Virus record (IMG/VR): IMGVR_UViG_3300028805_000057
Coordinates: 32,001-96,000 of that record
Reading direction: 5' to 3' (one strand)
DNA length: 64,000 nucleotides
Source of the DNA: a virus
Taxonomy: Duplodnaviria > Caudoviricetes
Below are positions 37,576-58,800 of the stretch, piece after piece; position 1 is the first letter of the stretch, and each line of letters begins with the position of its first letter. Made by a program: the position numbers and the translations under genes. The notes under the pieces were generated by a model. The model searched no databases and had not been told where the DNA came from. It was given only the letters and a program-made list of their open reading frames with translations.

Positions 37576-38101
37576 TCATGCTTTTCTTGGAGCAAGCACA
37601 CATGCATGGTTAAATGATGATCCTGCAAAACTTAAGAATCGATATTTAAGATGGCTTGCAAAAGAAAGAGGAACACGATTACATGATTTAGCAGCTCGAT
37701 TAATCAAAGAAGGTATTGAACTTCCACAAACAACTAAAACTTTTGATCAATATGTAAATGATGCAATTGGTTTTAGAATGAGGCCTGAACAAAAATTATA
37801 TTATAGTGATAATTGTTTTGGTACTGCGGATGCAATAGCCTTTGATGAAAAAATAAAGTTTCTACGAATTCATGATTTAAAGACTGGTGAGATTCCTGCA
37901 AAGATGGAACAGTTATATATTTATGCTGCTTTATTTTGTTTGGAATATCATCAGAAGCCTGGAGATCTTGGATTCGAATTACGAATCTATCAGAATAATG
38001 GAATTGATATTGCTAATCCTAATGCGGAGATTATATTACCGATTATGGATAAGATTATATCATTCGATAAATTAATTAACAACATTAAAGGAGAATTGTA
38101 A
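37541..38101 (+). CDS. DUF2800/Cas4-like PD-(D/E)XK exonuclease
   Basis: HAFLGAS, GTRLH, EQKL, FGTADAI, IHDLKTG, QLYIYA. Confidence 0.8.
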   Translation: MKWNDHFKLPSDHAFLGASTHAWLNDDPAKLKNRYLRWLAKERGTRLHDLAARLIKEGIELPQTTKTFDQYVNDAIGFRMRPEQKLYYSDNCFGTADAIAFDEKIKFLRIHDLKTGEIPAKMEQLYIYAALFCLEYHQKPGDLGFELRIYQNNGIDIANPNAEIILPIMDKIISFDKLINNIKGEL

Positions 38102-41025
38102 TGGATACTAGCGGCATGTCATTTGATGACAAAATCAAAGCTTATATTCGACTCCATGAGACAGAGTCTTCATTACAACATTATGGAACCCCGAGACATT
38201 CTGGTAGATATCCATGGGGTTCTGGTGAAAATCCTTATCAAAGAAATGAGGACTTTCATAGGGTTTACAATGATTTAAAATCTCAGGGATATTCTGATAA
38301 AGAGATGGCTGAGATGTTTGGTTGTTCTATTAATGAACTTAAAGCAAGACGTTCAATGTCTTCACAGCAAGAAAAAGAAAGACAGAGAGTTCGTGTTGTT
38401 AGACTTCATGACCAAAAAGGAATGGGTTGGACAGCTATTGCACAAGAGATGGGATTAAAGAATGAATCTACAGCTCGTTCAATTTACAAGAATGCAAAAG
38501 CTCCTAAGAAACAACTCAATCAGCAAGTTGCAGATAGACTTGAAAAGATTCTTAAGGAAAAAGGCGGATATTTGGATATTTCAACAGGAACAGAACTTGG
38601 ATATCCTTGGTCTGAAGATGCTCCTAAGACTGGTATTAGTTCAAGTCAGATGAGAACAGCATCTATTATGTTAAGAGAAAAAGGATATTCTGTACAGGTA
38701 ATTAACTTACCTCAGGTTACAAATCCAGGTCAGTATACAAATACAACTGTACTTGCTCCTGCTGGAACAACCAAAAAGGATATTTTCAATAATCTTGATA
38801 AACTTCATTCAGTTGAAGATTATACACCAGATGCTGGTAAGACTTGGTGGGTTCCTGAATGGCCTGCTTCAATTGATAGAAAGAGAGTTTATGTAAGATG
38901 GCCTGATGAAGGTGGAGCCGAGAGAGATGGTATGGTTGAAATAAGACCTGGTGTTAAAGACCTTTCTCTTGGAAACTCTACTTATGCACAAGTTAGAATT
39001 GCAGTACATGGATGCGATGTTGCTGGAAAGACAGATGATTACGGAAATCCTGAACCTTCAGATCGTTATATTAAAGGAATGGCTGTATATTCTGATGAGA
39101 TACCCGATGGCTATGATATTGTTGTAAACTGTTCTAAAGCAAGATCAAAAGGTGATGCTAAAGCATTTAAACCAATAAAAGATACAACAGATGTAAATGC
39201 TGTCTTTGGTGCAAGAATTATGACTAACGGACAGGATCATTATATTGGTGATGATGGAAAAGATCATCTTGGTTTAATAAATAAGGTTAATGCAGAAGGA
39301 ACTTGGCAGGATTGGTCTAAAACTTTACCTTCACAGTTCTTAAGCAAACAGCCTAAAGAGCTTATTAAGAAACAGCTTAACTTAACATATGCTGATGCAC
39401 TTGATGAGTTCAATGAAATTAAGAATTATACAAATGATGTTGTTAGACAGAAAGCTCTTGAAGAGTTTGCAAGTCAGTGTGATAGTGCTGCAGTAGATTT
39501 AAAAGCAGCTGCATTACCTAGACAGCAGTCACATGTTATAATTCCAATTAACACATTAAAAGACAATGAAGTATTTGCACCTGGATATGATGATGGTGAG
39601 GAAGTTATATTAATCAGATATCCTCATGAAGGAACATTCCAGATACCTAGACTTATTGTAAATAATAAAAATAAAGAAGGTATTAAATTTATTGGCAAGC
39701 TTGCACCTGATGCAATTGGTATTAATCATAATGTTGCAGACATAATGTCAGGAGCAGACTTTGATGGAGATACTGTTACAGTAATACCTACAAGTAAGAT
39801 TGTCAATATTAAGAATAAACCACCTCTTGAAGGACTTAAAGGCTTTGATGCAAAAGCTGAGTATCCTTACAGACCTGGTATGAAACACTTGGATAAGAAG
39901 CAGACACAGACAGAAATGGGTGTCATCTCAAACCTTATTACTGATATGACAATCAAAGGTGCTACTGATGAAGAACTTACTCGTGCAGTAAAGTATGCAA
40001 ACACAGTTATTGATGCAGATAAACATAATCTTGATTACAAGAGAAGTTATGCAGAGAATGATATTGAAAGTTTAAAAAAGAAATACCAGCAGAAAGCTGA
40101 TTGGAATGGTAAAGGTAAATCATATGGTGGTGCTGGAACTTTACTTTCAAGAGCTAGTTCAGAGCAACATATTTTAGAACAGCAGTTAGCACAAGTAGAT
40201 GAGAAAACTGGAAACTTAAAGAAAGCTTGGAGACCTGATTCTTCTGGAGAATTAATGTATATGCCTACTGGAAGAACAAGAATGGTTCCTGAGAGAAACA
40301 AAGATGGTTCTATAAAACTTGACGAAAATGGCAAGAAAATATACAAGGAAGAACTTGTAAGACAGAAAGTTTCTAAAATGTCACAGGTTGAAGATGCAAG
40401 AGAGCTTATGTCTAATCCCGAGAAAGGTTACATTCAGGAAGAGTTGTATGCTGAGTATGCTAACAACATGAAACACCTTGCTATTCAGGCTCGTAAAGAA
40501 GCTTTCTCTATTAAACCCGAGAAGTGTAACCCTGAAGCAGCTGCAGCATATAAAGATGAAGTTGAATCACTTAATCGTAAACTTGAAAATGCACAGCGTA
40601 ACGCACCTAAGGAAAGACAAGCTCAGGTTCTTGCTAATGTATCTATGAAGGAGCTTAAGGAAGCTAATCCTGGCATGGACAATGAGAAGAAGAAGAAGCT
40701 TGCTCAGCTTGTAATGACTCAGGCTAGAGCTTCTGTTGGTGCTAACAAGAAGGATGTACAGGTAGAAATCACTCCTCGTGAATGGGAAGCCATACAGAAG
40801 AATGCTATCAGCCCTAGTAAGCTGCGCGAGATACTCAAGAATACTGATACCGATAAGGTTAAGAAGCTTGCATCTCCTAAGGTTCCTGCTAATACATTAC
40901 CCAAGACTAAGATTAATCGTATCAAGGCTATGGCTAATAGTGGTTACACCTTAGAGGAAATAGCAAAGGCACTTGATATTTCAAAGAGCAGTGTTTCGAA
41001 GTACATCAAAGGGAAGGAGGATTGA
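38101..41025 (+). CDS. Single-subunit two-barrel (YonO/QDE-1-like) RNA polymerase with HTH domains
   Basis: Ordered motifs DGMVEI, QVR, YIKGM, RYP, SGADFDGD (39748-39771), MGVISNL, VIDADK; N- and C-terminal HTHs. Confidence 0.8.
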   Translation: MDTSGMSFDDKIKAYIRLHETESSLQHYGTPRHSGRYPWGSGENPYQRNEDFHRVYNDLKSQGYSDKEMAEMFGCSINELKARRSMSSQQEKERQRVRVVRLHDQKGMGWTAIAQEMGLKNESTARSIYKNAKAPKKQLNQQVADRLEKILKEKGGYLDISTGTELGYPWSEDAPKTGISSSQMRTASIMLREKGYSVQVINLPQVTNPGQYTNTTVLAPAGTTKKDIFNNLDKLHSVEDYTPDAGKTWWVPEWPASIDRKRVYVRWPDEGGAERDGMVEIRPGVKDLSLGNSTYAQVRIAVHGCDVAGKTDDYGNPEPSDRYIKGMAVYSDEIPDGYDIVVNCSKARSKGDAKAFKPIKDTTDVNAVFGARIMTNGQDHYIGDDGKDHLGLINKVNAEGTWQDWSKTLPSQFLSKQPKELIKKQLNLTYADALDEFNEIKNYTNDVVRQKALEEFASQCDSAAVDLKAAALPRQQSHVIIPINTLKDNEVFAPGYDDGEEVILIRYPHEGTFQIPRLIVNNKNKEGIKFIGKLAPDAIGINHNVADIMSGADFDGDTVTVIPTSKIVNIKNKPPLEGLKGFDAKAEYPYRPGMKHLDKKQTQTEMGVISNLITDMTIKGATDEELTRAVKYANTVIDADKHNLDYKRSYAENDIESLKKKYQQKADWNGKGKSYGGAGTLLSRASSEQHILEQQLAQVDEKTGNLKKAWRPDSSGELMYMPTGRTRMVPERNKDGSIKLDENGKKIYKEELVRQKVSKMSQVEDARELMSNPEKGYIQEELYAEYANNMKHLAIQARKEAFSIKPEKCNPEAAAAYKDEVESLNRKLENAQRNAPKERQAQVLANVSMKELKEANPGMDNEKKKKLAQLVMTQARASVGANKKDVQVEITPREWEAIQKNAISPSKLREILKNTDTDKVKKLASPKVPANTLPKTKINRIKAMANSGYTLEEIAKALDISKSSVSKYIKGKED

Positions 41026-41357
41026 GAGCTATGAGAGAAGTAATGTTAACAACAGTCGACAATCCGTTTAATCCATTTGATAATTTTGAAGAGTGGTTCA
41101 AAATTGATATGCAGTTTGGATACAATACTTGTGCTTTGGTAGCTCGTATTGCTCCATCTGCTACTGATGCATTGCCTGATAAGTTTGCTAACGCAATGCA
41201 AGAGGAATGTATCGACCGTTGGTGTCGTATGTTCCCACTCACTTACAAGAAAGTTGTTAGGGAGATACCTGACCCTGACTACAAAGCCATGTTAGAAGAG
41301 GACGAAGACTATAGCGATTACTATAGCGATGACGATAGCGAGACATCAGAAGATTAA
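41022..41357 (+). CDS. Conserved phage protein
   Basis: MLTTVDNPFNPFDNFEEW..D...GYNT..L.AR. Confidence 0.7.
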   Translation: MRAMREVMLTTVDNPFNPFDNFEEWFKIDMQFGYNTCALVARIAPSATDALPDKFANAMQEECIDRWCRMFPLTYKKVVREIPDPDYKAMLEEDEDYSDYYSDDDSETSED

Positions 41358-41423
41358 TAGCTATCTTTTTCTACTATGAATATCAAAATCATTTATTCAA
41401 AAGTAGAATGAAGCTAGCAATAC

Positions 41424-41525
41424 CACCCCGGGGGGTGCGAGGGGCTGCATGGGACTGTTCGTTCGAGCGCCACTTCGAAAATTCTCCGGGGGGATCTGCT
41501 GATATTTGAGTTTATACCCGGGGCT
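41424..41525. other. Putative genome end / packaging (cos-like) region
   Basis: GC-rich CCCCGGGG-type palindromes between the RNAP operon and the TerS/HNH genes. Confidence 0.45.
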
Positions 41526-41529
41526 TTCC

Positions 41530-41741
41530 CAGTGAGGTTGATTCACTCTAAAGCTCCATTGTCTCGCTAGGTTCGTCTCCTTATCCTTTAAGTGATAAAA
41601 GGTTGGTAATACAAAGGCTTTACAAGATCGCTAACTAAAAACGCCAACCCATAAGTCACAGCGGTATTAGCTTAGTCTTACGCCCAATAAACTACGGCTA
41701 AAGTGTGTCAGTGGAGCTTTAAAGTGTAGTTAACCTCACTG
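41530..41741 (+). ncRNA. Long hairpin RNA C (~32-bp terminal stem, ~147-nt interior)
   Basis: CAGTGAGGTTGATTCACTCTAAAGCTCCATTG pairs with CAGTGGAGCTTTAAAGTGTAGTTAACCTCACTG; 3 G.U pairs on the + strand. Confidence 0.55.
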
Positions 41742-41771
41742 TAAAGCAAATAGAGAAGGAAGGAAAAGTGT

Positions 41772-42140
41772 ATGAAAGAAGCCAAGAGAGTGATACCAAA
41801 CACTCCGGTATTCCCGCCAGCGTCTTCTGATGAGGAACGGACAATGCAGATGGGCTCTCTTGCAATGGACTTAGCAGAAATGAGAATGCGTGAAGGTATT
41901 GCTTCCTCTGCTGAAATATTATACTTTATTAAAGCAGCCTCACCTGAAGCAAGACTTGAACGAACTAAGTTAGAAGAAGAAACAAAATTAATTCAAGCAA
42001 GAGTAACAGATATAGAACGTTCAAAGAATACTGAAGAACTCTATAGTAAAGCAATTGCTGCATTTCAAGAGTATCAAGGAATTGAGATTGAAGAAGAAGG
42101 TGATGAAGATGGTTACGGACCGTATCAGAACCTATACTGA
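41772..42140 (+). CDS. Probable terminase small subunit
   Basis: First gene of the packaging module; PPA...E.R..Q...LA.DLAE...EG.ASS, ELY..AI.AF..Y.G. Confidence 0.5.
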   Translation: MKEAKRVIPNTPVFPPASSDEERTMQMGSLAMDLAEMRMREGIASSAEILYFIKAASPEARLERTKLEEETKLIQARVTDIERSKNTEELYSKAIAAFQEYQGIEIEEEGDEDGYGPYQNLY

Positions 42141-42603
42141 GTTAATCCAATTTCTAACTTTTGAAGAACGATTTGAATATTTGAATCTTGGCGGAATAAT
42201 TGGAGTCGAAACATTTGGTGCATTAAGTAGTCGTTGGATGAATCAAAATTTTTACAGATCAAATGAATGGAAACAATTAAAGAATCAGATACTTATACGA
42301 GATAACGCTTGTGATATGGCATTGCAAAATTATCCAATCGGTAACACAAGAATTTACATACATCATATGAATCCTATTACCGAAGATGATATTGTTGAGA
42401 GAACACCTTTTCTCTTAGATCCAGAGTATCTTATATGTGTTTCATTTGAAACTCACAATGCGATTCACTTCGGTGACATAAATGTTTCAAGATTAGCAAA
42501 AGATCCAGTATTAAGACAACCAAATGATCAATGCCCTTGGAAGTCAGATTATCAAGTAGCACCACATGTTACTGCAAGAGGATTTGATCGAAGAAGTAAA
42601 TAA
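42109..42603 (+). CDS. HNH endonuclease (packaging associated)
   Basis: FYRS.EW, IRDNACD, YIHHMNP, LICVS..THNAIH. Confidence 0.8.
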   Translation: MVTDRIRTYTELIQFLTFEERFEYLNLGGIIGVETFGALSSRWMNQNFYRSNEWKQLKNQILIRDNACDMALQNYPIGNTRIYIHHMNPITEDDIVERTPFLLDPEYLICVSFETHNAIHFGDINVSRLAKDPVLRQPNDQCPWKSDYQVAPHVTARGFDRRSK

Positions 42604-42620
42604 GAAAGGAGAATACCATA

Positions 42621-43976
42621 ATGCCAATGCGTAATAATGAAATGTTATACAATGTATTTGCATACCATAAAAATCATATACAACATTATGGTACTCTTGG
42701 ACAAAAGTGGGGTGTTCGTCATTGGCAAAACTCAGATGGTACTTTTAATGCTGAAGGTAAACTGAGATATTTTGGAACACCTAAGAATAGAAATACAAAT
42801 GGAACTGTTTTTATTAGCGGTTCTTCTAAAACACAATTTGACAATAGTCCATATTATCGAGAAAAATTACCCGATCAGATACAAGAACAAATAAGGAAGT
42901 ATATGAATCAAGGTAAGACAATTCTTGTTGGAGATGCACCTGGTATTGATAGACAAGTACAAGATTTCCTTAAAGAAAATAACTATAAAGATGTAGAAGT
43001 TTATAGTCCAGGAAAAGAAGTAAGGTATAATGCTAATCCTGAATGGAAAACTAATCTTATCGATGTTCCCGAAGCACCACAAGGTTCTAGTGAATGGCTT
43101 GCCGGTAAAGATAAAGCTATGTCTGATCGAGCAGATGAAGGCTTAGCAATTGTCTTAGATGATGGTTCACAAGCCACAAGAAATAATATTTCAAGATTGA
43201 ATGAACAAGATAAAAATTGTGATGTATTTCAATTAAATAAAGATGGTAAAGATGGATGGACTAAATATGGTGACTTTGATGAAAATACATTGAAGAAACT
43301 TAAGAGTGAAGGTTATGCAAGAGATTCATATGAAAACGAAAGTGAAACAGATAATGGTTACTTAGATAATGTAGCTAATTGTATGCAAGAAGACTTCTCA
43401 TATGATGACTCAGATCATAAACTTCAATCTCCATCTCAAACATTTAAATACAAAACTGGTAATTGTCATGATCAGACTTTGTTTGAAAAAGAATTATTTG
43501 AACAAGCTGGATTAGAACCCAAAGCGATCTTTTTAATGGAAGTTGATCCTAATACTGGACAAGGCGGTGTTACACATAGTTTTGTGTTCTTTGAAGATCC
43601 TGACACCAAACATATTACAAAATTTGAAAATGCTTGGCGAGATAAAGCTGGAGTTGAAACATTTTCATCAATTAATCAAATGAAAGATTATATGGAATGG
43701 GAACATAAGAATAAAAACAACTTTGGCAATTCAGAAGTTTATCCTAAAATAGTTTGGGGTAACTTTGAAGGTCAGCCAGGTGACGATTTACAAGACATTG
43801 TTACTAAGAGCCTTTCTTCAAAGATTGGAGCAGATTCTTTTATTAAGGATTTAGGTTTGGGAAAGAAAGTTCTTAGTGCATTAGTCAAAACAAAAGACAA
43901 AGCCAAAGAAACAGCAAAGGAGATTTATAGTAATGGGAAGACGAAATTATTATCAAAATATGGAAGAAACAACTGA
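42621..43976 (+). CDS. HYG-tagged putative internal virion protein with SLOG-like and transglutaminase-like domains
   Basis: IQHYGTLGQKWGVR; VFISGSS...ILVGDAPGID...KDKAM; GNCHDQ...THSF...FENAW. Confidence 0.65.
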   Translation: MPMRNNEMLYNVFAYHKNHIQHYGTLGQKWGVRHWQNSDGTFNAEGKLRYFGTPKNRNTNGTVFISGSSKTQFDNSPYYREKLPDQIQEQIRKYMNQGKTILVGDAPGIDRQVQDFLKENNYKDVEVYSPGKEVRYNANPEWKTNLIDVPEAPQGSSEWLAGKDKAMSDRADEGLAIVLDDGSQATRNNISRLNEQDKNCDVFQLNKDGKDGWTKYGDFDENTLKKLKSEGYARDSYENESETDNGYLDNVANCMQEDFSYDDSDHKLQSPSQTFKYKTGNCHDQTLFEKELFEQAGLEPKAIFLMEVDPNTGQGGVTHSFVFFEDPDTKHITKFENAWRDKAGVETFSSINQMKDYMEWEHKNKNNFGNSEVYPKIVWGNFEGQPGDDLQDIVTKSLSSKIGADSFIKDLGLGKKVLSALVKTKDKAKETAKEIYSNGKTKLLSKYGRNN

Positions 43977-44196
43977 AGAAGTAGTCAATGAGACACCTGT
44001 TGTTGAAGAGGCTCCTGCAGTTGAGACTGTTGTAAATGAAGAACCTGCAAAAGTAGAAGAGAAGAAAGAAGAGCCTGTAGTTCAGAAAGCAGTAGTTGAA
44101 GAGAAGAAAGTTGAAACTCCTGCACCTGCACCCGTACCTGCTCCTATAAAGAAAGGTGTTAAAGAGGTTAAAGCAAAGGGAACTGCAACTCTATAA
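43933..44196 (+). CDS. Small Glu/Pro-rich protein
   Basis: SD AAGGAG; low complexity. Confidence 0.55.
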   Translation: MGRRNYYQNMEETTEEVVNETPVVEEAPAVETVVNEEPAKVEEKKEEPVVQKAVVEEKKVETPAPAPVPAPIKKGVKEVKAKGTATL

Positions 44197-44208
44197 AGGA
44201 GACTTATT

Positions 44209-44559
44209 ATGGATGAGAGTATACTAACATCAATTAAAACTCAATTAGCTCTTATGCCAGAAGATGAATCATTTGACAGAGAGTTAATAATATTTATAAA
44301 TGCTGCGTTCGCTAGACTGACACAGCTTGGTGTTGGTCCAATGCCTCATTTCCAAATAGCAGATGATAGTACAACTTGGGATGAATATGTCACAGATATT
44401 ACACAAGAAGAAATGGCAAAAGTATATGTTTATCTCAAAGTAAAAAGATTATTTGACCCACCTGCTAATTCAACACTTGCAAAAGCAATTGATGAAGAAA
44501 TAGCAATGTATGAATACTTATTAAAAGTTGAAGCGGAGGATGATGCAGAATATGAGTGA
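44209..44559 (+). CDS. Head-to-tail connector/adaptor
   Basis: SILTSIK, FD..LI..IN.AF..L.QLGVGP, YVYLKV..LFDPP. Confidence 0.7.
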   Translation: MDESILTSIKTQLALMPEDESFDRELIIFINAAFARLTQLGVGPMPHFQIADDSTTWDEYVTDITQEEMAKVYVYLKVKRLFDPPANSTLAKAIDEEIAMYEYLLKVEAEDDAEYE

Positions 44560-46276
44560 AGAAATGTTAGCAGTAATGCAAGAAGATGATCAGAATTCGC
44601 TTGAACATTATGGTGTAAAAGGCCAAAAGTGGGGACAGCGAAATTACCAAAATCCTGATGGTACTTATACGGATTTAGGAAAAGAAAGAAGACGAGTAAA
44701 ATTTATCCGAGAAGAGAAGGCTAAGAAAGAAGCTGATGCTAATGCGCATCAAAATGGTATTGAAGAATCAATTGATACAGATGTAAAGATTGGTGGCAAA
44801 GCATATAAGGATATGACTCGTAAAGAGCTCCGTGCTGCAAAGAAACGTGCAAGACATAACGAAGCTGAGCGTAGAGCACAGAGAGAATTTAATAGAGATA
44901 AAAAGCAAGCATTAGAAGATGGTGACATTGCTTTTATTTCAAAAAATATCAGCAAATTTACTAATGAAGAGATTGATGCAGCAATGGTTAGATACAAGAA
45001 AATGCAGGATTTGAAGAATCTTGATAAGGCTAACCAGAAAGATGCAAACCATTACATTGACAAAGCTTTACATTACTTGGATAAAGCAAGTCAAGCAAGT
45101 AAGTCAATCTCTAATATTGCAAATAACTTCAATGATATGTCTAAGAAGGCTGCTGAGAAGAAGAAAGCTTGGATAGATTATGAATATACCAAAGATCCTA
45201 GCTTAAAGCCTCTTACTGAGAAAGAGAAGCTTGATGTTGAGAAACAGAAGACTATTAATAAACAGTCAGAAGAAACTCTTGCTAAGATGAGAGAAGCAAC
45301 ATTACAAGAACAGGAAAAGACCAAGCAAGCGAGAATAGATTCTGCTAATAAACGTTCTTCACAGCAAGCTGAACTTACAGAGATTGAAGAAAAAGCAAGA
45401 AAAGCTCGTATTGATAACGATATGCTTGAACAAGAAGTAAGACAAAAGAAATTCGAAGCTGATCAGAAAGCAGTTGAGAGAGACCAGAAGAAATTTGATC
45501 TTGATATGCAGAAGAAAGCTGTAAAGGATCTTGAGAAAGCAGAAGATGATCTTAAGAAACAACTTAAAGACAGTATCAAACGAGAAATGACTTCTGAAGA
45601 GAAAGAACTCAGAGCAAAGTTAAAAGAAGTTGAAGAAGAGAAGAGAGAAGCTGAACGTAAAGAAAAAGAAGCACGTAGAGCAGAAAAAGAAGCAACTAAT
45701 AGAGCTAATGCTGAATTAAAAGAATATTTACGTAAGCTTGATGAGCAAGAAGAAAATGAAAAAGAACAGAGAAGATTAGAAAAAGAGCAAGCTAAAAAGC
45801 AAAAAGAGATTGAACGTACGATGCAAGAAGAAGCAAAGAATATTGCTAAACAGAATGAAGTTGAAAAACAATTAAATTCTATGACAAATGATGAATATTG
45901 GAATTTAATGTATTCTGGTCAGTCAAAGAATCAATCTAAACTTGGCTCATTCTTCTCTAAGAAAGATAAGGATAAAGTACATAAAGATAATAATCAGGAC
46001 TTTGATCCAGATGATAAAGGTGTTAATATTGTTACAAGAAAATACCTTAATCAGTTAAAAAATTCACCTAAAGATTACTTCAAAGAAAATCAGGTTCAAA
46101 CAGATCAGTGGAAGAAAGATCTGAAGAAGTATGATGCTGATGTAATCGATAAGTGGGTTAAAGATATGAAGAAGAAATATATGAAAGAAAGAAACATGGA
46201 TTCCAAAGCAGCTGAACAAAAAGCTGAGGAGTATGTTGATTCTTGGTTAGATGCCTATGACGAAGGCTTATTCTAA
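44528..46276 (+). CDS. HYG-tagged coiled-coil putative internal virion (ejection) protein
   Basis: LEHYGVKGQKWGQRNYQNPDGT; long charged coiled coil; true start probably 44552. Confidence 0.7.
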   Translation: MKRRMMQNMSEEMLAVMQEDDQNSLEHYGVKGQKWGQRNYQNPDGTYTDLGKERRRVKFIREEKAKKEADANAHQNGIEESIDTDVKIGGKAYKDMTRKELRAAKKRARHNEAERRAQREFNRDKKQALEDGDIAFISKNISKFTNEEIDAAMVRYKKMQDLKNLDKANQKDANHYIDKALHYLDKASQASKSISNIANNFNDMSKKAAEKKKAWIDYEYTKDPSLKPLTEKEKLDVEKQKTINKQSEETLAKMREATLQEQEKTKQARIDSANKRSSQQAELTEIEEKARKARIDNDMLEQEVRQKKFEADQKAVERDQKKFDLDMQKKAVKDLEKAEDDLKKQLKDSIKREMTSEEKELRAKLKEVEEEKREAERKEKEARRAEKEATNRANAELKEYLRKLDEQEENEKEQRRLEKEQAKKQKEIERTMQEEAKNIAKQNEVEKQLNSMTNDEYWNLMYSGQSKNQSKLGSFFSKKDKDKVHKDNNQDFDPDDKGVNIVTRKYLNQLKNSPKDYFKENQVQTDQWKKDLKKYDADVIDKWVKDMKKKYMKERNMDSKAAEQKAEEYVDSWLDAYDEGLF

Positions 46277-46294
46277 TAAATATGAGGTAAACTT

Positions 46295-48037
46295 ATGATA
46301 TCAAATACAGCTACACCGAAATATTATGGGCAATTTCGAGAAGCTGTCTTAAAAGGAGAAATACCAGTTTGTCAAACTATTTCTATGGAGATGAATCGTA
46401 TAGATAATCTTATAGCAAATCCAACAGTTTGGTATGATCCTGCTCCAGTAGAAGGTTATATTAAATTCTGCGAAAAAGAGTTAACTTTGACAGATGGTTC
46501 GGATTTAGTCCTACTTGATTCATTTAAATTATGGGCTGAACAAATATTTTGTTGGTATCACTTTGAACCAGCACAAGTATTTGTTAAAGGCAAGGATGGA
46601 CAACCTGGACATTATGTCACAAAAAATGTTCGTAGACGACTTACACATAAACAATTCCTTATAGTAGGAAGACGTGCATCAAAATCATTATATGTAAGTA
46701 CAATACAAAATTACTTCTTAAACATTGACAACTCTACAACTCATCAAATAGCTGTAGCACCTACAATGAGACAGGCTGAAGAAGTAATGTCGCCCATAAA
46801 AACAGCCTTAGCAAAAGCAAGAGGACCATTATTTAAATTCCTCACAGAAGGTTCTATTAATAATACTACTGGTTCTAAAGCAAATAGAGTTAAAGTTGCA
46901 TCTACAAAGAAAGGTATTCAGAACTTCCTTACAAATTCACTCTTGGAAGTAAGACCACTTTCGATTGATTCGCTTCAGGGTTTGCGCTGTAAAGTCGCAA
47001 GTCTTGATGAGTGGTTATCAGGAGAAACTAAGGAAAATCCTATTACCGCTATTGAACAGGGTGCAAGAAAGATTCCTGATTGGTTAATACTATGTACTTC
47101 ATCAGAAGGTACTATCAGACATGGCGTTGGTGATACAATCAAAATAACACTAATGGATACGCTTAAAGGAGAATACATTGATCCTTTTACAAGTATATTC
47201 TATTATAAGTTAGATAACATTCAGGAATTAAATTATCCAGAATTATTTGTAAAGGCTAATCCTAATATTGGTTATACAACATCATTACAAGATTATATAC
47301 AAGAACGCGATAGAGCAGAAGCGTACCCCTCGGAACGTAATGACATACTCGCCAAGATGTTTAATATACCAATGGAAGGTTATACGTATTACTTTACATA
47401 TGATGAAGCAACACCTGGCCCTTATCAAGAATTTTGGAATATGCCTTGTGCAATGGGTTGTGACTTATCGCAAGGAGATGACTTCTGTGCTTTTACATTT
47501 TTATTTCCTCTTGGTAATGGAAAGTTTGGTATTAAGACAAGAAGTTACATAACCACTTTAACTCAATCAAAGTTAACATTGGCAACACGATTAAGATATG
47601 ATGACTTTATTAATGAAGGAACTTTAGTTGTAATGGATACAACTGTTTTGGATTTAAATTTAGTTTATGAAGATCTAGAACAATTTATAGCATCGAAACA
47701 ATATGCTGTAGAATGTGTAGGATATGACCCGTATAATGCAAAAGAATTTATTGAAAGATGGGCAAGGGATAATGGACCTTATGGTATTGAGAAAGTTATA
47801 CAAGGTGTTAGAACTGAATCAGTACCCCTTGGAGAGTTGAAGAAACTGGCCGAAAATCGTATGCTTCTCTTTGATGAACAGCTTATGAGTTTCGCCATGG
47901 AAAATTCTGTTGTATCAGAAGATTCTAATGGTAATAGAAAACTTTATAAGAAAAGACATCAGGATAAGATTGATAATGTATCGGCACTAATGGATGCATT
48001 TGTTGCATACAAGTTAAATAAAGATTACTTCGAGTAA
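46295..48037 (+). CDS. terL: Terminase large subunit
   Basis: Walker A variant VGRRASKS, Walker B SLDEW, GCDLSQGDDF, GYDPYN, KIDNVSALMDA. Confidence 0.92.
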   Translation: MISNTATPKYYGQFREAVLKGEIPVCQTISMEMNRIDNLIANPTVWYDPAPVEGYIKFCEKELTLTDGSDLVLLDSFKLWAEQIFCWYHFEPAQVFVKGKDGQPGHYVTKNVRRRLTHKQFLIVGRRASKSLYVSTIQNYFLNIDNSTTHQIAVAPTMRQAEEVMSPIKTALAKARGPLFKFLTEGSINNTTGSKANRVKVASTKKGIQNFLTNSLLEVRPLSIDSLQGLRCKVASLDEWLSGETKENPITAIEQGARKIPDWLILCTSSEGTIRHGVGDTIKITLMDTLKGEYIDPFTSIFYYKLDNIQELNYPELFVKANPNIGYTTSLQDYIQERDRAEAYPSERNDILAKMFNIPMEGYTYYFTYDEATPGPYQEFWNMPCAMGCDLSQGDDFCAFTFLFPLGNGKFGIKTRSYITTLTQSKLTLATRLRYDDFINEGTLVVMDTTVLDLNLVYEDLEQFIASKQYAVECVGYDPYNAKEFIERWARDNGPYGIEKVIQGVRTESVPLGELKKLAENRMLLFDEQLMSFAMENSVVSEDSNGNRKLYKKRHQDKIDNVSALMDAFVAYKLNKDYFE

Positions 48038-48057
48038 AATCAAAATAGAAGGAGATA

Positions 48058-49407
48058 ATGATGGATTTCAAGAATAGAATCAAGCATGCCTGGAATGCAT
48101 TTATGAATAAAGATCCCACTCCAACGGTGGATTTAGGTCCAAGTTCATATTATTATCCAGAGCGAACGCAAACAAGAACACAGACTGATCGTTCAATGAT
48201 TACATCAATATTTAATCGTATTGCGATAGATGTATCTACAGTAAGAATATTACAAGCAAAGGTTGACGAATTAGGTAATTATATAGAACCCATGAGAACT
48301 CCTTTGAATGAATGCTTACAAGTTAGTGCAAATATTGATCAGACTGGACGAGCATTAATACAAGATGCAGTTCAGAGAATGTTTAGAGATGGAGTTGTTG
48401 CATTAGCTCCAATTGTATCAGATGATAATCCTAATGAAACTGGTACATTTGATATATACGATATTCGATGTTGTGCAGTAACACAATGGTATCCTCGAAA
48501 AGTCGAAGTAGAAGTTTACAATGACAAGAAAGGAACTATTGAGAAATTATTACTTGACAAAGAGATCGTATGTATTATTCAAAATCCTATGTATGAAATA
48601 ATGAATGCACCAAGTTCATTACTTAATAGGATTTTTAAGAAATTGAGTTTGCTGGATGTAGTCGATAATGAGAATGCATCTAATAAACTAAATATGATTA
48701 TTCAAGTACCTTACTCAACAAGATCTCAGCTTCATCAAGATAATGCTTCGAGACGAAGAAAAGAGATTGAAGACCAATTAATTAATAATCCTTATGGTAT
48801 TGCCTATATGGATGTTAATGAAAAGCTTATTCAATTGAGTAGACCTCTTGAATCAAATCTCCTCGAACATATCAAATATTTGATGGAGACTTATAAGAAT
48901 CAACTTGGTATCACCGATGCAGTTTTAAATGGAACTGCGAATGAAACAGAGATGAACAACTACATCAAGAGAACAGTTGAACCTATTTGTGCTGCTCTCT
49001 GTGATGAAATGAGACGTAAATGGTTAACACAAACTGCCCGTACAAAAGGACAATCCATTACGTATTACTCTGATCCATTCAAGCTTATACCTATTAATGA
49101 AATTGCTAAGTTTGCAGATGTACTTTCTAGAAATGAGATTATGACATCTAATGAACTTAGACAGAAGATGGGTATGCCTCCGTCAGATGATCCAAGGGCT
49201 GATGAGTTAAATAATGCTAATATGCCTGACTACGATCAAGAAAATCAAAATGAGATGATTCCTATGGAAGAAGAAACTAATCCTGGACAAGAAGAAGTTT
49301 ACTTCGATCCTAATGCTCAGAATCAGGAAACTGAAGAAGAGCAAGGTGAAGAGGAAGTTTATTATGATCCTGAAAGTAGCACTAAGACATTTAGCTTGTT
49401 TAAATAA
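48058..49407 (+). CDS. Portal protein
   Basis: Follows TerL; IFNRIAIDV, ANIDQTGRA, NEIMTSNELR..MGMPP. Confidence 0.88.
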   Translation: MMDFKNRIKHAWNAFMNKDPTPTVDLGPSSYYYPERTQTRTQTDRSMITSIFNRIAIDVSTVRILQAKVDELGNYIEPMRTPLNECLQVSANIDQTGRALIQDAVQRMFRDGVVALAPIVSDDNPNETGTFDIYDIRCCAVTQWYPRKVEVEVYNDKKGTIEKLLLDKEIVCIIQNPMYEIMNAPSSLLNRIFKKLSLLDVVDNENASNKLNMIIQVPYSTRSQLHQDNASRRRKEIEDQLINNPYGIAYMDVNEKLIQLSRPLESNLLEHIKYLMETYKNQLGITDAVLNGTANETEMNNYIKRTVEPICAALCDEMRRKWLTQTARTKGQSITYYSDPFKLIPINEIAKFADVLSRNEIMTSNELRQKMGMPPSDDPRADELNNANMPDYDQENQNEMIPMEEETNPGQEEVYFDPNAQNQETEEEQGEEEVYYDPESSTKTFSLFK

Positions 49408-49430
49408 AATATTACGAGAGGAGAAAACCA

Positions 49431-51842
49431 ATGAATCAAGACTACGATTTTGCCGGTTGGGCAACCAAAAATGACATTCTTTGTGAAGACGGTCGTGTTA
49501 TTAAGAAGGATGCATTTAAGGATTGCGATGGTAAACAGGTACCGTTAGTCTTCAATCATGATCACAAAGATGTTCAGAACTTTTTAGGACATTGTGTATT
49601 AGAAAATCGTGATGAGGGTGTTTACTGCTATGGCTATATAGACAAAGACACACCTGCAGGTCAGCAGGCTCTGAGTCTTATTAAACATGGAAGTTTGAAT
49701 TCTCTCTCGATTTATGCTAATAAACTTAAACAGATTGGTCATGATGTAATTCACGGTCTTATTCGTGAAGTTTCACTTGTACTTGCTGGTGCTAATTCAG
49801 GCGCTGTAATAGATACAGTATTAGCTCATGCAGAAGATGCAAGTGATATTGAAGGCGATGCTATGATAGTTTACGCTGGTGAAGAAAATCCTATTGAGCA
49901 TAGTTTTGATGATTCCGAGCACGAAGAAGAAATAGAACATTCAGCTGATGAGTCAGAAGATGATGAAGCAGTATTTGATTCTATGACAGATGCTCAGAAG
50001 AGACTTATGCTCAAAATGATGGGTATGGCTGCAGAAGATGCAGCAAATTCTACAGTTTCCCATTCTTCAAAAGATGCTGAGGAAGATGATGAAGATGACG
50101 ATGACGAAGACGATGAGTCAGAGTTAGAACATTCTAAAGAATCTTCTGAAGAGAATGAAGATAAGGATAAAAAGAAAGCTTGTTCACACAGCTTCTTACT
50201 TTTTGGTAATGATGATGAATTGAGTCATGCTTCAAAAGAAGAAGACGAAAAAGAAGAAACCAAAAATGAGGAAGATGATGAAGACAATGAAAACCTCGAA
50301 GATGCTGAAGAATCCGATGTAGAAGAGGATGACAAAGACGACGAGGAAGAAACAAATGATTCAAACAAAAATAATGAGAAGGAGAAAAAAGAAATGACTC
50401 ACAATTTATTTGAAAATCAGGCACAGAACGATGTTCTTATCCACAGCGCTGAAATGTGCAGCGAGATGATGGCAGATGCAGTTAAGTTTGGTTCACTTAA
50501 GGATTCCGTAATGGCTCATAGTGCAGATTACGGTATTGATAACATTGATTACCTTTTCCCGAATGCAAAGAATTACACCACTACTCCTGAGTTCATTAAG
50601 AGAAGAACTGAGTGGGTTAATGAAGTTCTTTCAGGCGTTCGTCAGTCACCTTTCAGCCGTGTTAAGACTATCTTCGCTGACATCACCGAGGATGAGGCTC
50701 GTGCTAAGGGTTACATCAAGGGTAACCGTAAGGCAGAGGAAGTATTCACTCTGTTAAAGAGAGAGACCACTCCTACTACCGTTTACAAGAAGCAGAGAAT
50801 TGATCGTGATGATATTATCGATATCACTGACTTCTCAGTTATCGAGTATATCAAGGCAGAGATGAGAATTATGTACGATGAGGAATGTGCACGTGCAATC
50901 CTTGTTGGTGATGGACGTAATCCTCTTAGCCCTGACAAGATCAAGGAAGCTAACATCAGACCTATCTGGACAGATGATGATCTGTTTACAGTTAAGAGAG
51001 CAATCGCTGTTACTACAGCTACAACTGATCAGGCTCGTGCTAAGGCATTTATCAAGAACCTTGTTAAGTCAAGAAAGCTTTACAGAGGTTCAGGTAATCC
51101 TACACTCTTCATCGCTGAGGACCTTCTTGCTGATATGCTCCTTATCGAGGATGAGATGGGACGTCTTATCTATGATGACATCAACAAGCTTAAGAACACT
51201 CTTCGTGTTAACAAGATTGTTGAAGTTCCGATCTTTGATGGTCTTATGAGAATAGACAATGGCGATACCAAGTATCTTGCAGCTATTCTTGTTAATCTTA
51301 ATGACTACAGAACTGGCCGTGATCGTGGTGGCGAGCTCAGCTTCTTCGATGATTTTGATATCGACTTCAACCAGCAGAAGTATCTTATGGAGTCAAGATT
51401 CTCAGGTGCTCTTGTTCTGCCTTATTCAGCAGTTGCATATGAGTTCGTTTACAATCTTACTCTTGATATCCAGGCAGAGGACAGCACTACTGTTGTTCTT
51501 GGCAAGCAGGTATCTGAGCTTCAGGAGAATGTATTCGTTAATGAGAACTCTGTACAGGGTATCCTTAACTATGTAACTGGTTATACTCAGTTCTCAGATT
51601 CACCTGAGCTTCAGGAAGGTCACTATCTTGCACTTAAGTTCGAGGCATCTGATGGAGCAACTGTTACTATCCAGACTATCGGTGGCGTAGATGATGCAAG
51701 AGTCGTTACTCTTGATCAGGATATGAATTCAGTTACTTATGTTAAGTCTACAAAGGAGAAGCTCAGAGTTACTTGCTCACTTAACGGCGACGTTATCACA
51801 AGAACTATCACCTTCAGTGGCTTAAAGCTTCTTGCTGAGTAA
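49431..51842 (+). CDS. Prohead protease + acidic scaffold + HK97-fold major capsid protein fusion
   Basis: VPLVFNH (His), SLSIYA (Ser), IREVSLVLAGAN; capsid part AKGYIKG, FDDFDIDFNQQKYLMESRFSGAL. Confidence 0.9.
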   Translation: MNQDYDFAGWATKNDILCEDGRVIKKDAFKDCDGKQVPLVFNHDHKDVQNFLGHCVLENRDEGVYCYGYIDKDTPAGQQALSLIKHGSLNSLSIYANKLKQIGHDVIHGLIREVSLVLAGANSGAVIDTVLAHAEDASDIEGDAMIVYAGEENPIEHSFDDSEHEEEIEHSADESEDDEAVFDSMTDAQKRLMLKMMGMAAEDAANSTVSHSSKDAEEDDEDDDDEDDESELEHSKESSEENEDKDKKKACSHSFLLFGNDDELSHASKEEDEKEETKNEEDDEDNENLEDAEESDVEEDDKDDEEETNDSNKNNEKEKKEMTHNLFENQAQNDVLIHSAEMCSEMMADAVKFGSLKDSVMAHSADYGIDNIDYLFPNAKNYTTTPEFIKRRTEWVNEVLSGVRQSPFSRVKTIFADITEDEARAKGYIKGNRKAEEVFTLLKRETTPTTVYKKQRIDRDDIIDITDFSVIEYIKAEMRIMYDEECARAILVGDGRNPLSPDKIKEANIRPIWTDDDLFTVKRAIAVTTATTDQARAKAFIKNLVKSRKLYRGSGNPTLFIAEDLLADMLLIEDEMGRLIYDDINKLKNTLRVNKIVEVPIFDGLMRIDNGDTKYLAAILVNLNDYRTGRDRGGELSFFDDFDIDFNQQKYLMESRFSGALVLPYSAVAYEFVYNLTLDIQAEDSTTVVLGKQVSELQENVFVNENSVQGILNYVTGYTQFSDSPELQEGHYLALKFEASDGATVTIQTIGGVDDARVVTLDQDMNSVTYVKSTKEKLRVTCSLNGDVITRTITFSGLKLLAE

Positions 51843-51904: not shown

Positions 51905-51944
51905 GGGGTGCTGCGGGTAAGTTACCCGTGGTGCCCTTAATTTT
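51905..51944 (+). terminator. Intrinsic terminator after the capsid gene
   Basis: GGGGTGCTGCGGGTAA-G-TTACCCGTGGTGCCCT then TAATTTT. Confidence 0.7.
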
Positions 51945-55879: not shown

Positions 55880-58800
55880 ATGGTCGATATAGATGAAAGA
55901 GTCGTGTCTATGAAATTCGACTCAAGCGACTTTGAGAAGAATACTAAATCGACAATGAGCATCTTAGATAAACTTCATGAAAAGTTATCATTTAAAGATG
56001 TTGCTGATAGTGATTCGCTGAACGCCATCACAAATAATGTACAAAAGATGGCAGATAAAGCTTATACAATCGTTGATAGGATGATTGATAAGATTAAAGA
56101 TAATATAGCTAATAAGCTTGTTAATTTCCTTCAAGAGAATACATTAGGACAATTTAAAGCAGGTTTTGATAAGTATGCTGATATGACTACCTCTGTTGCA
56201 ACTTTAAGTTCACAAGGTTATGCAATGAAGCGTATTAATGAACAGCTTGCGAGACTAAATTACTTTACAGATGAAACTTCATACAACTTCACTTCAATGG
56301 TTAGTGAAATTGGTAAGTTTACAGCTTCAGGACAATCACTTGAAGATGCTACGACAGCAATGATGGGTATTGCAGAATGGGCAGCACTTTCAGGTAAGAA
56401 TGCAAATGAAGCATCAAGAGCAATGTATCAGCTTTCACAAGCTCTTGGTTCTGGTACAATGAGACTGATAGACTATAAGTCAATTCAGAATTTGAATATG
56501 GATACAATCGAGTTCCGAAAGAATGCTATTGAAGCAGCTATTGCAGCAGGAACTCTTAAAGATAATTTAAATGGTACGTTTACATCATTAGTTGATAATA
56601 AGACAACATTTGCTATTCAAAACTTCGCCGAATCATTAAGTGGTAAATGGTTTAATAGTAAAGTAATGATGGAAACATACAAGAAATATTCTGATGCAGT
56701 TGATGAAATTAGAGCAATATATGAAGAAGGTACTTATACAACACTTGCCGGTGATGAAAAAGATATAAATACAACTGCAGATGCTGTTAAACTTGTTAAA
56801 GAAAATAATGAAGAACTTATTAAAAGGTTTAGAGAAGCTAATAAAAAATTAACTAGTGATCAGATTGATGACTTTCTGAAAAAATGGAAGAAAGTTGAAA
56901 AAGTCACTGGTATGACAGTTAAAGATTATGCCAAAATGCATGAAATTTCTGAAGAAGAAGCCAAAACTATGATGGCTGCTAAAGAGAAAGGTTATGCAGA
57001 ATATTTAAAAGAGTATGCAGAAGTATTTAAAGAAACTGAACAAAGTGCAGAAGAAGCTCTTGAAGATTGGCATACATATGTTTCAACTTATGGTATTAAA
57101 GCATTTGAAGCAGCTCAGGAAGCAAAGACATTTAGAGATGCTATTGAATCTGCTAAGGATGCAGCAAGTACTGTTTGGACAACTATTTATACAGAAGTAT
57201 TTGGTAATTATGAAGAAGCAAAAGAGCTTTGGACTGATTTGGCAAATGCTTTATATGAAATATTTGTAAATCGTTTGTGGGATCTTGAAGGTATCTTTAA
57301 TTATTGGAAAGATGGATACGAAAAAGATGCTGAAAAGCAAATAAAAACTCTTAAAGAAGAATATGACAAGTTAACTGCTAATGGTGCTCCTGCAGATGTA
57401 TATGGTAGACAACGTGTCGAAGAAATAAAAAAAGAAATGGCTGAAATTCAAGCACAATTGGATACTGGTTTATTAAATGGTAGACGAGTATTATTTCAAG
57501 GTTTGTATGCGTTTGGTGGTGGTTTAAAAAGCGTTATACAAAATTTTAGAGATGCTTGGAATGGATTATTTGATGAAAATGAGAGTGCTAAAAAGTTATT
57601 TAATTTAAGTGAACGTATCAGATATGATGGTTTTAGATTCTATGATATGCTTACTAATAAAGAAACTGGTTTAGTTGCTACTGATTTTTATAAAAATATT
57701 GCACAAGGTATAAAGAATTTATTTGCTCCATTTAAAGGTGCTATAGAAGTAATTAAAGCTGTTATTAATTCATTCTTACCTGCTAGAAAAACAACTAAGG
57801 ATATACTTGTTTCATTATCTGAAGCATTTAAGAATTTTACAGAGAAACTTGTACCTAGTCAAGAAACTTTACAGAAGATTGCAAAGATATTAAGAGGTGT
57901 AGTTTCTGTTATACGTTTAATTGCAAAAGCAGCATATGGTTTATGGACTGCTATAATTAAACCAATTCTTAGTGTATTGTTTGATGGTTTAGGAAGTATA
58001 ATTGGATTCTTAACAGATATACTAGCTTCAATGGCAGATGGTTTCTATGGATTTGAAAATGCTATAGGACCAATGGAAGCTTTACAGGTTGTTGCTGAAG
58101 CTGTTCAATGGGCATTTGAAGGAATTCTCGAAATACTCAAATCAGTTGCTGGTGTGATTTGGGATATATTTGGACCTGCAATTAGCTTTGTAGTTGGTAT
58201 ATTTAAAGATTTATTTAATAAAGCTAAAAATTTATTTAGTGGTGAAAAAGGTAATGTCTTTAAGAATATTGGTAATGGATTCAAGAATGTTACAAGTAGA
58301 GCTAAAGATGCTTGGAAGTCAACTGAAACCTTTGCTGATGTTTTTAATAGATTTAAAGAAGGTAAAGGCATAAGTAATGTTGTTGAATTACTTGGTGCTT
58401 TACTCGATAACTTTGTTACAAGAATTGGTAGAACTGTAATCGCAATATTCGGTCTTGAAGATGTTATAACAAATGAAAATGGTAAAATTGGAGCAGCATT
58501 CAGTGATCTTAAGAGCTCATTAAGTGGTGTTGCTACAATATTTAAATGGATTTATACAAATGTTATACGACCTACATTACAGGTAGCATTTACTGGTCTT
58601 GCTAATTGCATAAGAGATATTGGCGAAGCTTGGAAATCTGGCGACGTTATGAGAATTATGCAAATATTAACTCAAGCATTTAAGACCATCGGTAGTTTTC
58701 AATTATTTAAAGTATTACAAGCTTTAAGTAGATCATTTGGTTCTGCTGGTATTCTTAGAGTATTAAGAAATGGTGCCAAAGCATTAAAGAGTTTATCAAA

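Follow-up and report, generated by a model that had tools for sequence, protein, structure and literature searches.

Results

The Region and Its Capsid Precursor

The DNA analyzed here is a stretch of 64,000 nucleotides, referred to throughout as the window, which corresponds to bases 32001–96000 of the virus record IMGVR_UViG_3300028805_000057 of IMG/VR. This record comprises 147,894 bp and is rated complete by CheckV, and all of the sizeable open reading frames (ORFs) of the window lie on the + strand. The head module of an uncultured 148-kb siphovirus makes up the window, and this virus belongs to the lineage that joins Lactococcus phage 1706, the Rhodococcus phages ReqiPepy6 and ReqiPoco6, the actinophage clusters AU, AW, DJ and BI, and the Faecalibacterium phages. 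This lineage had already been described (bioRxiv 10.1101/842583), as had its protease-capsid fusion and its RdRP-like polymerase, the family of which is the same as in that work. A megablast of the region against the GenBank phages gave no match, and the virus is therefore without a close cultured relative. The subject of this work is a short motif formed by a hydrophobic residue, any residue and a histidine (h-x-H), which is repeated in the capsid precursor of this virus and is found again in a tag near the N-terminus of three other proteins. Its sequence context makes it a probable cutting site of the phage protease and, at the same time, one element of a signal for the loading of proteins into the head.

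The order of the genes is exonuclease, RNA polymerase, a small ORF, a gap of 415 bp, HNH endonuclease, a protein of 451 amino acids (aa), connector, a protein of 582 aa, large terminase subunit (TerL), portal and an ORF of 803 aa at 49431–51842 (Table 1). The tagged genes are thus embedded in the head module together with those of TerL and the portal (46295–49407).

The 803-aa ORF encodes a prohead protease, a spacer and a capsid protein in one chain. When the protease domain was scanned alone, Peptidase_S78 (PF04586) matched residues 20–130 with 33.8 bits against a cut-off of 21, a match that was missed in the full-length scan, and TIGR01543 gave an E-value of 3e-8, below its equivalog cut-off. 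Residues H43, H45 and S115 were invariant among 41 homologues, and their motif context (NHD and EVSLV..AN) suggests that they correspond to the catalytic residues of HK97 gp4. The capsid core was matched by Foldseek with a probability of 1.0 to the shells of HK97 (2gp1, 1ohg), T5, several actinophages, phi29 and encapsulins, and it scored 23.4 bits with Pfam Phage_capsid, just under the cut-off of 24.2. Protease family (S78) and capsid fold are the same as in the HK97-type relatives. A sequence search of the Protein Data Bank with the fusion gave no match, so that no solved related structure gives the mature N-terminus.

The spacer was mostly disordered in the AlphaFold2 (AF2) model, with a predicted local distance difference test score (pLDDT) below 50 over residues 133–177 and 206–338 and conserved helices at 178–205 and 340–367. 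The stretch 178–205 (49962–50045) is the sole confidently helical and conserved one within the spacer (..DSM...QK.V...M.G.A.E), and some relatives (L028, L030 and L034) have it in duplicate. It could act as a scaffolding helix, and the tag described below might dock there.

The h-x-H Motif in the Spacer

A previous reading of this DNA from the sequence alone had reported ten hydrophobic-x-His motifs between protease and capsid, the last of them directly preceding the capsid core. All ten were recovered (LAH133A, IEH157S, IEH170S, VSH211S, LEH234S, CSH253S, LSH266A, MTH324N, LIH338S and MAH363S), and MAH363 was indeed located immediately before SADYGIDNIDYLFPN, the start of the core. Residues 124–366 contain 11 His, ten of which have L, I, V, M, F or C at position -2 and S, A, G or N at +1; the exception is SEH164E. 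Shuffled spacers gave means of 2.0 for the -2 counts and 0.57 for the -2/+1 counts, and none of 100,000 shuffles equaled the observed values. Cuts at all ten sites would give fragments of 13–58 aa.

The same pattern was observed across the family, sampled as 62 distinct fusion proteins from IMG/VR loci that were retrieved via the capsid. Their folded parts are 38–86% identical, and their spacers cannot be aligned. These spacers contain 472 His, and 88% of them carry L, I, V, M, F or C at -2, the hydrophobic background of the spacers being 21%, while +1 is mainly S, A, G or D. This bias at -2 is unique to His among the residue types (the next is Tyr, with 45%, and the remainder do not exceed 27%). 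Each spacer has 4–10 sites, with a median of 7; for the longest stretch from one site to the next the median is 52 aa.

The positions of the first and the last site are also conserved. The first h-x-H lies 19–20 residues past the motif of the catalytic Ser in 62/62 proteins, H133 is invariant, and the order predicted by AF2 stops exactly at residue 133; conservation of H338 is at least 90%. The last h-x-H is kept in about 60 of the 62, and is followed by a variable stretch of 0–20 residues and then by the conserved N-arm of the capsid protein, YGI.NI[DE].LFP. This arrangement would be expected if the His ended the removed part and the variable stretch were a free tail. Moreover, orf10 of phage 1706 has the same pattern (VMTHG, IITHA, TLKHN, VITHA, TLKHA and VLKHA, then ITNIDVLFPN). 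The h-x-H is the sole conserved feature at the capsid junction, where the protease and the spacer would have to be removed for a maturation like that of HK97-type capsids.

In related prohead proteases the residue three positions before the cut (P3) is hydrophobic and the residue directly before it (P1) is fixed, as in L/I-x-E for T4 gp21 and V/L-x-A/S for the assemblin of herpesviruses. The geometry of the h-x-H, in which P3 is hydrophobic, P2 free, P1 fixed and the residue after the cut (P1') small, fits these enzymes. The pattern in the family makes it very likely that the h-x-H is a maturation code and that the protease cuts after the His.

The portal also has an h-x-H near its N-terminus, RIKH10 followed by AWNAF (48079–48102, + strand, portal residues 8–15). 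Within the lineage, 48 distinct portals have the form h-x-H-[AGSV]-W-N-A-F at residues ~8–13, that of 1706 among them (LLH9, then SWNA). It may represent a third class of protease substrate or merely a structural motif.

The Tag of the Polymerase and of the 451- and 582-aa Proteins

The sequence-only reading had also placed the motif, followed by YG...WG, in three unrelated proteins. A scan of the window in six frames for H[YFW]G..WG returned these three sites and none besides: LQH27YGTPRHSGRYPWG in the polymerase (38173), IQH22YGTLGQKWG in the 451-aa protein (42678) and LEH27YGVKGQKWG in the 582-aa protein (44600). In the latter two proteins the tag extends further as (V/Q)R.(W/Y)QN.DGT(F/Y). 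In its general form it comprises 20–25 residues, [DE]-x-h-x-H-(Y/H/F)-G-x-x-G-x-(K/R)-W-G-x-R, with a polymerase variant h-x-H-Y-G-x3-SGRYPWGSG. The tag of the 582-aa protein was matched by Pfam DUF7211 (PF23847), a family of 25 positions without an assigned function, with 28.9 bits (cut-off 27) and, when the genome was scanned, with 33.4 bits; phrog_32444 matched this protein as well. The DUF7211 model does not detect the tag of the polymerase, despite its h-x-H-Y-G..WG. The start of the 582-aa ORF is more likely the ATG at 44552 than the TTG, since it overlaps the upstream stop and has GGAGG before it; the His of the tag is then residue 19.

The presence of the h-x-H in the tag was determined in sets drawn without selection for His. 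The loci drawn via the capsid contained 51 distinct G..G.[KR]WG cores, and all 51 had a His two residues before the first Gly, P3 being always L, I, V or F and P1' always H, Y or F. A search by the polymerase locus gave 3 loci, and polymerase N-termini were drawn with a DNA pattern for GRYPWGSG alone, the His not being required. An upstream h-x-H was present in 104/104 distinct N-termini and regularly spaced in 99, with L, I or V at P3 in 99/99 and Tyr at P1' in 93. As for an avoidance of the h-x-H in the mature cargo, a count by eye on the polymerase gave a hydrophobic residue at -2 for 3 of 13 non-tag His, which is about chance and hence uninformative.

A profile of 17 tags was then compared with 1.84 billion representative proteins, and 45,619 of them matched at E ≤0.001 and 20,816 at ≤1e-10. 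Among the best 148 of the 45,619 matches, all 345 tag cores lie behind an h-x-H. Of these 148 proteins, 136 have 2–5 tags, and 130 of the 145 with any tag have the first one at the N-terminus. Their tags are a median of 224 aa apart, each of them opening a module, and at least 26 residues (median 207) follow the last one. The spacing of the multiple tags and their N-terminal placement indicate that the unit is a tag plus a domain, often strung in series. One such module stands alone, with a leader of 12–16 aa, in some loci (L027 and L040); in others (L033, L035 and L044) one or two other modules precede it in the same protein.

The AF2 model of the 451-aa protein showed a disordered leader and tag (residues 1–31, pLDDT <50) before two folded domains. 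Leaders vary in length, from 4 residues to over 25, and show no conservation; in the relatives with MEELYH/HG, MSYLAH/YG and MPLKH/YG only 4–6 residues would precede the cut. These short leaders, together with the conservation downstream of the His, suggest that the targeting element is the tag retained on the mature protein and not the leader. The tag is also found internally, 2–5 times, at the starts of modules, and the role in routing cargo that the sequence-only reading had given to the leader is consequently not supported.

The resemblance between tags and spacer sites was quantified with a matrix of spacer sites trained solely on distant homologues and applied to 670 His in 214 ORFs of the genome. 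The genome's own spacer sites shared the top ranks with the tags of the 582-aa protein, a 295-aa protein and the polymerase, which were ranked 2nd, 3rd and 5th, respectively.

Elsewhere in the genome, four more proteins carry the full tag, and two others have a similar leader ending in SLEH or SLRH, without the KWG part. A gene array at genome positions 112192–123330, beyond the window, encodes EFY..L..YK leaders that end in h-x-H, and four of its members carry the full tag. The long leader of this array was considered as a signal and rejected, given the leaders of only 4–6 residues in relatives. The same array encodes a 797-aa protein with PELNH32 followed by SGEE, which was ranked 6th on the spacer matrix.

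Domains Carried by the Tagged Proteins

The domains behind the tag were as varied as the sequence-only reading had proposed, and include SLOG, GNAT, RNA ligase, kinase and polymerase domains. The polymerase was matched by Pfam RdRP with 23.9 bits, against a cut-off of 23.8, and has the DFDGD catalytic loop. In the 451-aa protein, the Foldseek matches were YpsA (2nx2) and DprA for the SLOG fold and the CPR-C4 protease and LapG for the papain/transglutaminase-like fold. Its homologues (P0018–P0126 among them) keep the tag and the SLOG half, and the other half is swapped for GNAT, DUF5662, a transglutaminase-like domain, the PF03496 ADP-ribosyltransferase or a kinase. This swapping is in the style of polymorphic effectors. 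The Pfam MuF domain gave no match in either the 451-aa or the 582-aa protein. In cultured relatives, the tag heads proteins annotated as RNA ligase, acetyltransferase and membrane protein.

Co-occurrence of the Tag With the Capsid Type

The tag and this type of capsid precursor were found together. A DNA pattern encoding only H.G.KGMKWG drew 80 IMG/VR contigs, and the fusion was detected on 61 of them, in the fetched stretch in 41 and elsewhere on the contig in 20; the 19 without it are all fragments of up to 15.8 kb. Every tag-bearing contig above 16 kb encodes the fusion (61/61), as do 8/8 genomes at least 90% complete among 39 re-examined contigs. Additionally, a tblastn of the tag against 50,697 GenBank phages returned 120 records, all of them in genera of this lineage. 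One Bifidobacterium phage among these records is a newcomer, and on inspection it had the same gene order.

Annotations of cultured phages bear on the presence of tagged proteins in virions. In the record of phage 1706 (GenBank EU081845), the depositors labeled both orf7, which has two tags, and orf75, the homologue of the polymerase, as "structural protein." The orf7 adjoins TerL upstream, the same position as that of the 582-aa protein. The record of ReqiPoco6 has the same label on its polymerase.

Discussion

Proposed Mechanism

After assembly of the prohead, the protease would very probably cut after the His in [LIVM]-x-H/(S/A/G/N...). The cut at H133 would free the protease, the acidic spacer, after serving as a scaffold, would be chopped into peptides of no more than 60 residues able to leave the shell, and the cut after H363 would create the N-terminus of the capsid protein. 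The DUF7211 module is likely a linear, disordered tag that heads a cargo domain and brings this domain into the assembling head. Two observations suggest this role as a head-loading tag: the virion annotation in the record of phage 1706 and the strict co-occurrence with the fusion. The balance of the evidence leans slightly toward the same protease reading the h-x-H of the tag, removing the part upstream of it, whether a short leader or whole modules, and leaving the tag on the cargo. Whether the cargo, chiefly the RNA polymerase, would then leave with the DNA and act early in the next cell is an evenly balanced question, the analogy being with the virion polymerases of N4, crAss-like phages and phiKZ. 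As a tentative view that joins these steps, and that is less probable than any of them, the capsid-fused protease might read the h-x-H together with the tag, which would be a portable signal on the prime side of the cut; each capsid subunit would then recruit cargo and, once activated, cut it free inside the shell, in which case the chains of tag and domain would be cargo "trains" split into proteins.

The delivery tag proposed by the sequence-only reading is thus upheld in part: the h-x-H is family-wide in the spacers and invariant in the tag, and the tag occurs only with the fusion, while the role of the leader was not sustained. A literature search found the work on the lineage and the T4 and SPN3US analogues, but no description of an h-x-H code, of a role for the tag or of a link between them, and a full-text search for DUF7211 gave no paper.

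Several observations weigh against this interpretation. The sequences compared share kinship, so that the raw counts overstate their independence. "Structural protein" in the record of 1706 is a label, presumed to derive from mass spectrometry. On the spacer matrix, the site of the 451-aa protein was ranked only 66th, and the N-terminal enrichment of high-scoring sites was weak (Fisher p 0.07 to 0.006, depending on the threshold), because many of the ORFs are short. The h-x-H of the portals precedes a conserved WNAF and may therefore be structural. Lastly, P1' is small in the spacers, whereas in the tags it is Tyr, His or Phe and is followed by an invariant Gly, which raises the possibility that the protease binds the tag and leaves it uncut.

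Alternative Explanations

This last difference is at the center of one alternative, in which the h-x-H is cut only in the capsid precursor, and DUF7211 is an uncut docking motif for the groove of the protease, the spacer helix or the inner shell, with the leader kept. The prime side would agree with it, given the aromatic residue and invariant Gly of the tags versus the small or acidic residues of the spacers, as would the strong conservation of the tag downstream of the His and the leaders of 4–6 aa, the removal of which seems pointless. However, P3 and P1 are invariant in all of the tags examined and match the code of the protease. The internal repeats of the tag at the starts of modules suit a polyprotein better than a protein with many anchors, and the same module is standalone in some loci and fused in others. 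An uncut docking motif is accordingly considered rather unlikely, although it deserves more weight than the two explanations that follow.

DUF7211 could also be unrelated to the virion, as a basic Trp peptide with an intracellular role, directed at a nucleic acid or a host factor, and be shared by accessory proteins whose genes lie close to those for packaging by coincidence. K, R and W abound in the motif, and the tagged domains (SLOG, GNAT, RNA ligase and polymerase) could work in the cytoplasm. An intracellular role is nevertheless improbable in view of the strict co-occurrence of the tag with one capsid-protease type, the h-x-H that it has in common with the capsid spacer, the location of its genes inside the head module and the structural label on both tagged proteins of 1706. 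As for the spacer itself, its His could bind metal or sense pH in an acidic scaffold, the junction being cut elsewhere or by a host enzyme. The spacer is certainly rich in His, Asp and Glu, but a function of this kind leaves unexplained the strict hydrophobic residue at -2, the small one at +1 and the sites exactly at both fold boundaries. Since the h-x-H is moreover the only conserved feature at a junction from which protease and spacer would have to be removed for maturation, metal binding or pH sensing is a highly improbable explanation, and cleavage after the His is preferred.

Comparison With Known Systems

The virion RNA polymerases of N4, of phiKZ and of crAss-like phages (phi14:2 gp66, which is YonO-like) travel in the head and are injected so that transcription can begin. 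The polymerase described here shares the two-barrel YonO/RdRP class with gp66, and differs from these systems in belonging to a siphovirus with a narrow tail channel and in having a tag and two helix-turn-helix (HTH) domains. Loading through the tag being likely as a whole, the observation that points to packaging of the polymerase in particular is the "structural protein" label of 1706 orf75.

Polymorphic toxins with MuF in temperate phages, reportedly treated by Jamet et al. in 2017, also combine an N-terminal part that associates with the head with effector or toxin domains that can be exchanged. The MuF carrier is folded and bound to the portal, unlike the tag, and no MuF domain was detected here. 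The cargo-loading peptides of encapsulins are similar in being short disordered peptides on varied enzymes that are directed to a shell of the HK97 fold, and encapsulins were among the Foldseek matches of the capsid core. They bind the inner shell and are terminal, usually C-terminal, with neither a protease nor ejection, whereas the tag is always N-terminal to its domain.

The comparison proposed by the sequence-only reading was with T4, where a capsid-targeting sequence (CTS) on IPI–III and Alt is removed by gp21 at (L/I)-x-E (Mullaney and Black, 1996, as cited in PMC10052503). Both systems use a short N-terminal signal on unrelated proteins and a triplet of hydrophobic P3 and fixed P1 that is frequent in the scaffold, and the cargo of T4 is ejected with the DNA. 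The analogy holds for this site shared with the scaffold and fails for the position of the signal: the T4 signal precedes the cut and is lost, whereas here the conserved module follows the proposed cut and would stay on the protein, and the leader, which is not conserved, is dispensable in relatives. Furthermore, P1 is Glu in T4 and His here, where an S78 protease is fused to the capsid protein of a siphovirus. In SPN3US, gp245 strips N-terminal propeptides, with several motifs each, off head and ejection proteins (PMC10052503). Like the system proposed here, this enzyme and gp175 of phiKZ (PMC10052503; PMC5694885) remove such propeptides from many head proteins; unlike it, they are of the T4 gp21 type, cut after Glu and belong to jumbo myoviruses, and no conserved retained tag has been described for them.

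If the tentative view of cargo cut free inside the shell is correct, a general code for protein delivery would be present in more than 45,000 protein clusters, serving a polymerase and swappable enzymes or toxin-like domains and spanning a siphovirus lineage across Actinobacteria and Firmicutes. The proposed mechanism, if correct, would give a function to a Pfam DUF found in 45,619 representative proteins, and would account for the packaging by a siphovirus of its RNA polymerase and, along with it, of enzymes and toxin-like proteins that change from phage to phage. Cutting after His would be a specificity for which no description was found in the HK97/S78 family, and the sequences of hundreds of cultured actinophages and lactococcal phages would show it directly. 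Many of these relatives are available in teaching collections (SEA-PHAGES clusters AU, AW, DJ and BI), in addition to Lactococcus phage 1706.

Other Features of the Region

Table 1. Positions in the window of the genes, protein domains and tags considered in this work.
Feature	Position	Strand	Basis or remark
RNA polymerase, YonO/RdRP-like, two-barrel, 974 aa, HTH at N- and C-terminus	38101–41025	+	phrog_4291, E 0
Polymerase-type tag, LQH27-YGTPRHSGRYPWG	38173–38220	+	GRYPWGSG contexts with upstream h-x-H
451-aa protein: disordered tag, SLOG fold, papain/transglutaminase-like fold	42621–43976	+	AF2 and Foldseek
Tag of the 451-aa protein, IQH22-YGTLGQKWGVRHWQNSDGTFN	42678–42749	+	DUF7211 hidden Markov model, 17.3 bits, under cut-off
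Connector protein	44209–44559
582-aa Lys/Glu-rich tagged protein	44528–46276	+	Directly upstream of TerL; probable true start 44552
Tag of the 582-aa protein, LEH-YGVKGQKWGQRNYQNPDGTYT	44600–44671	+	DUF7211; second-best genome site on spacer matrix
TerL	46295–48037	+	Pfam TerL_nuclease, TerL_ATPase
Portal	48058–49407	+	Pfam Phage_portal
Prohead serine protease domain, residues 1–132	49431–49826	+	Peptidase_S78, TIGR01543, AF2 pLDDT ~80–93
Acidic spacer/scaffold region, residues 133–363	49827–50519	+	Ten h-x-H sites
HK97-fold major capsid core, residues 364–675	50520–51455	+	Foldseek, Pfam; predicted mature N-terminus SADYGIDNID...
C-terminal all-beta Ig-like domain, residues 676–803	51456–51842	+	AF2 beta strands; phrog_31690 on residues 697–802

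The immunoglobulin (Ig)-like domain at the C-terminus of the fusion is encoded as a separate ORF of 139 aa, 3' of the capsid gene, in one relative (G017:39860-40252). Being separate in at least one relative, it resembles a decoration domain that is sometimes fused.

Directly 3' of the capsid gene, a strong terminator-like hairpin was found at 51905–51937, with a stem of 15 bp that includes 8 GC pairs. No hairpin of comparable strength was listed on the + strand in the scan from the polymerase gene to the capsid gene, and the polymerase may therefore be co-transcribed with the head genes.

The 415-bp gap, at 41358–41771, contains no ORF of 80 aa or more. On one side of it is the small ORF that follows the polymerase, and on the other are the genes that lead to HNH and TerL. 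In relatives with linear cos genomes (ReqiPoco6 and the actinophages), the genome ends at the equivalent place, so this gap may be the cos or packaging region. Finally, an ORF of 2,538 aa was located 3' of the tail genes, at 55880–63496. It presumably encodes the tape-measure protein, and its great length is consistent with a large siphovirus.

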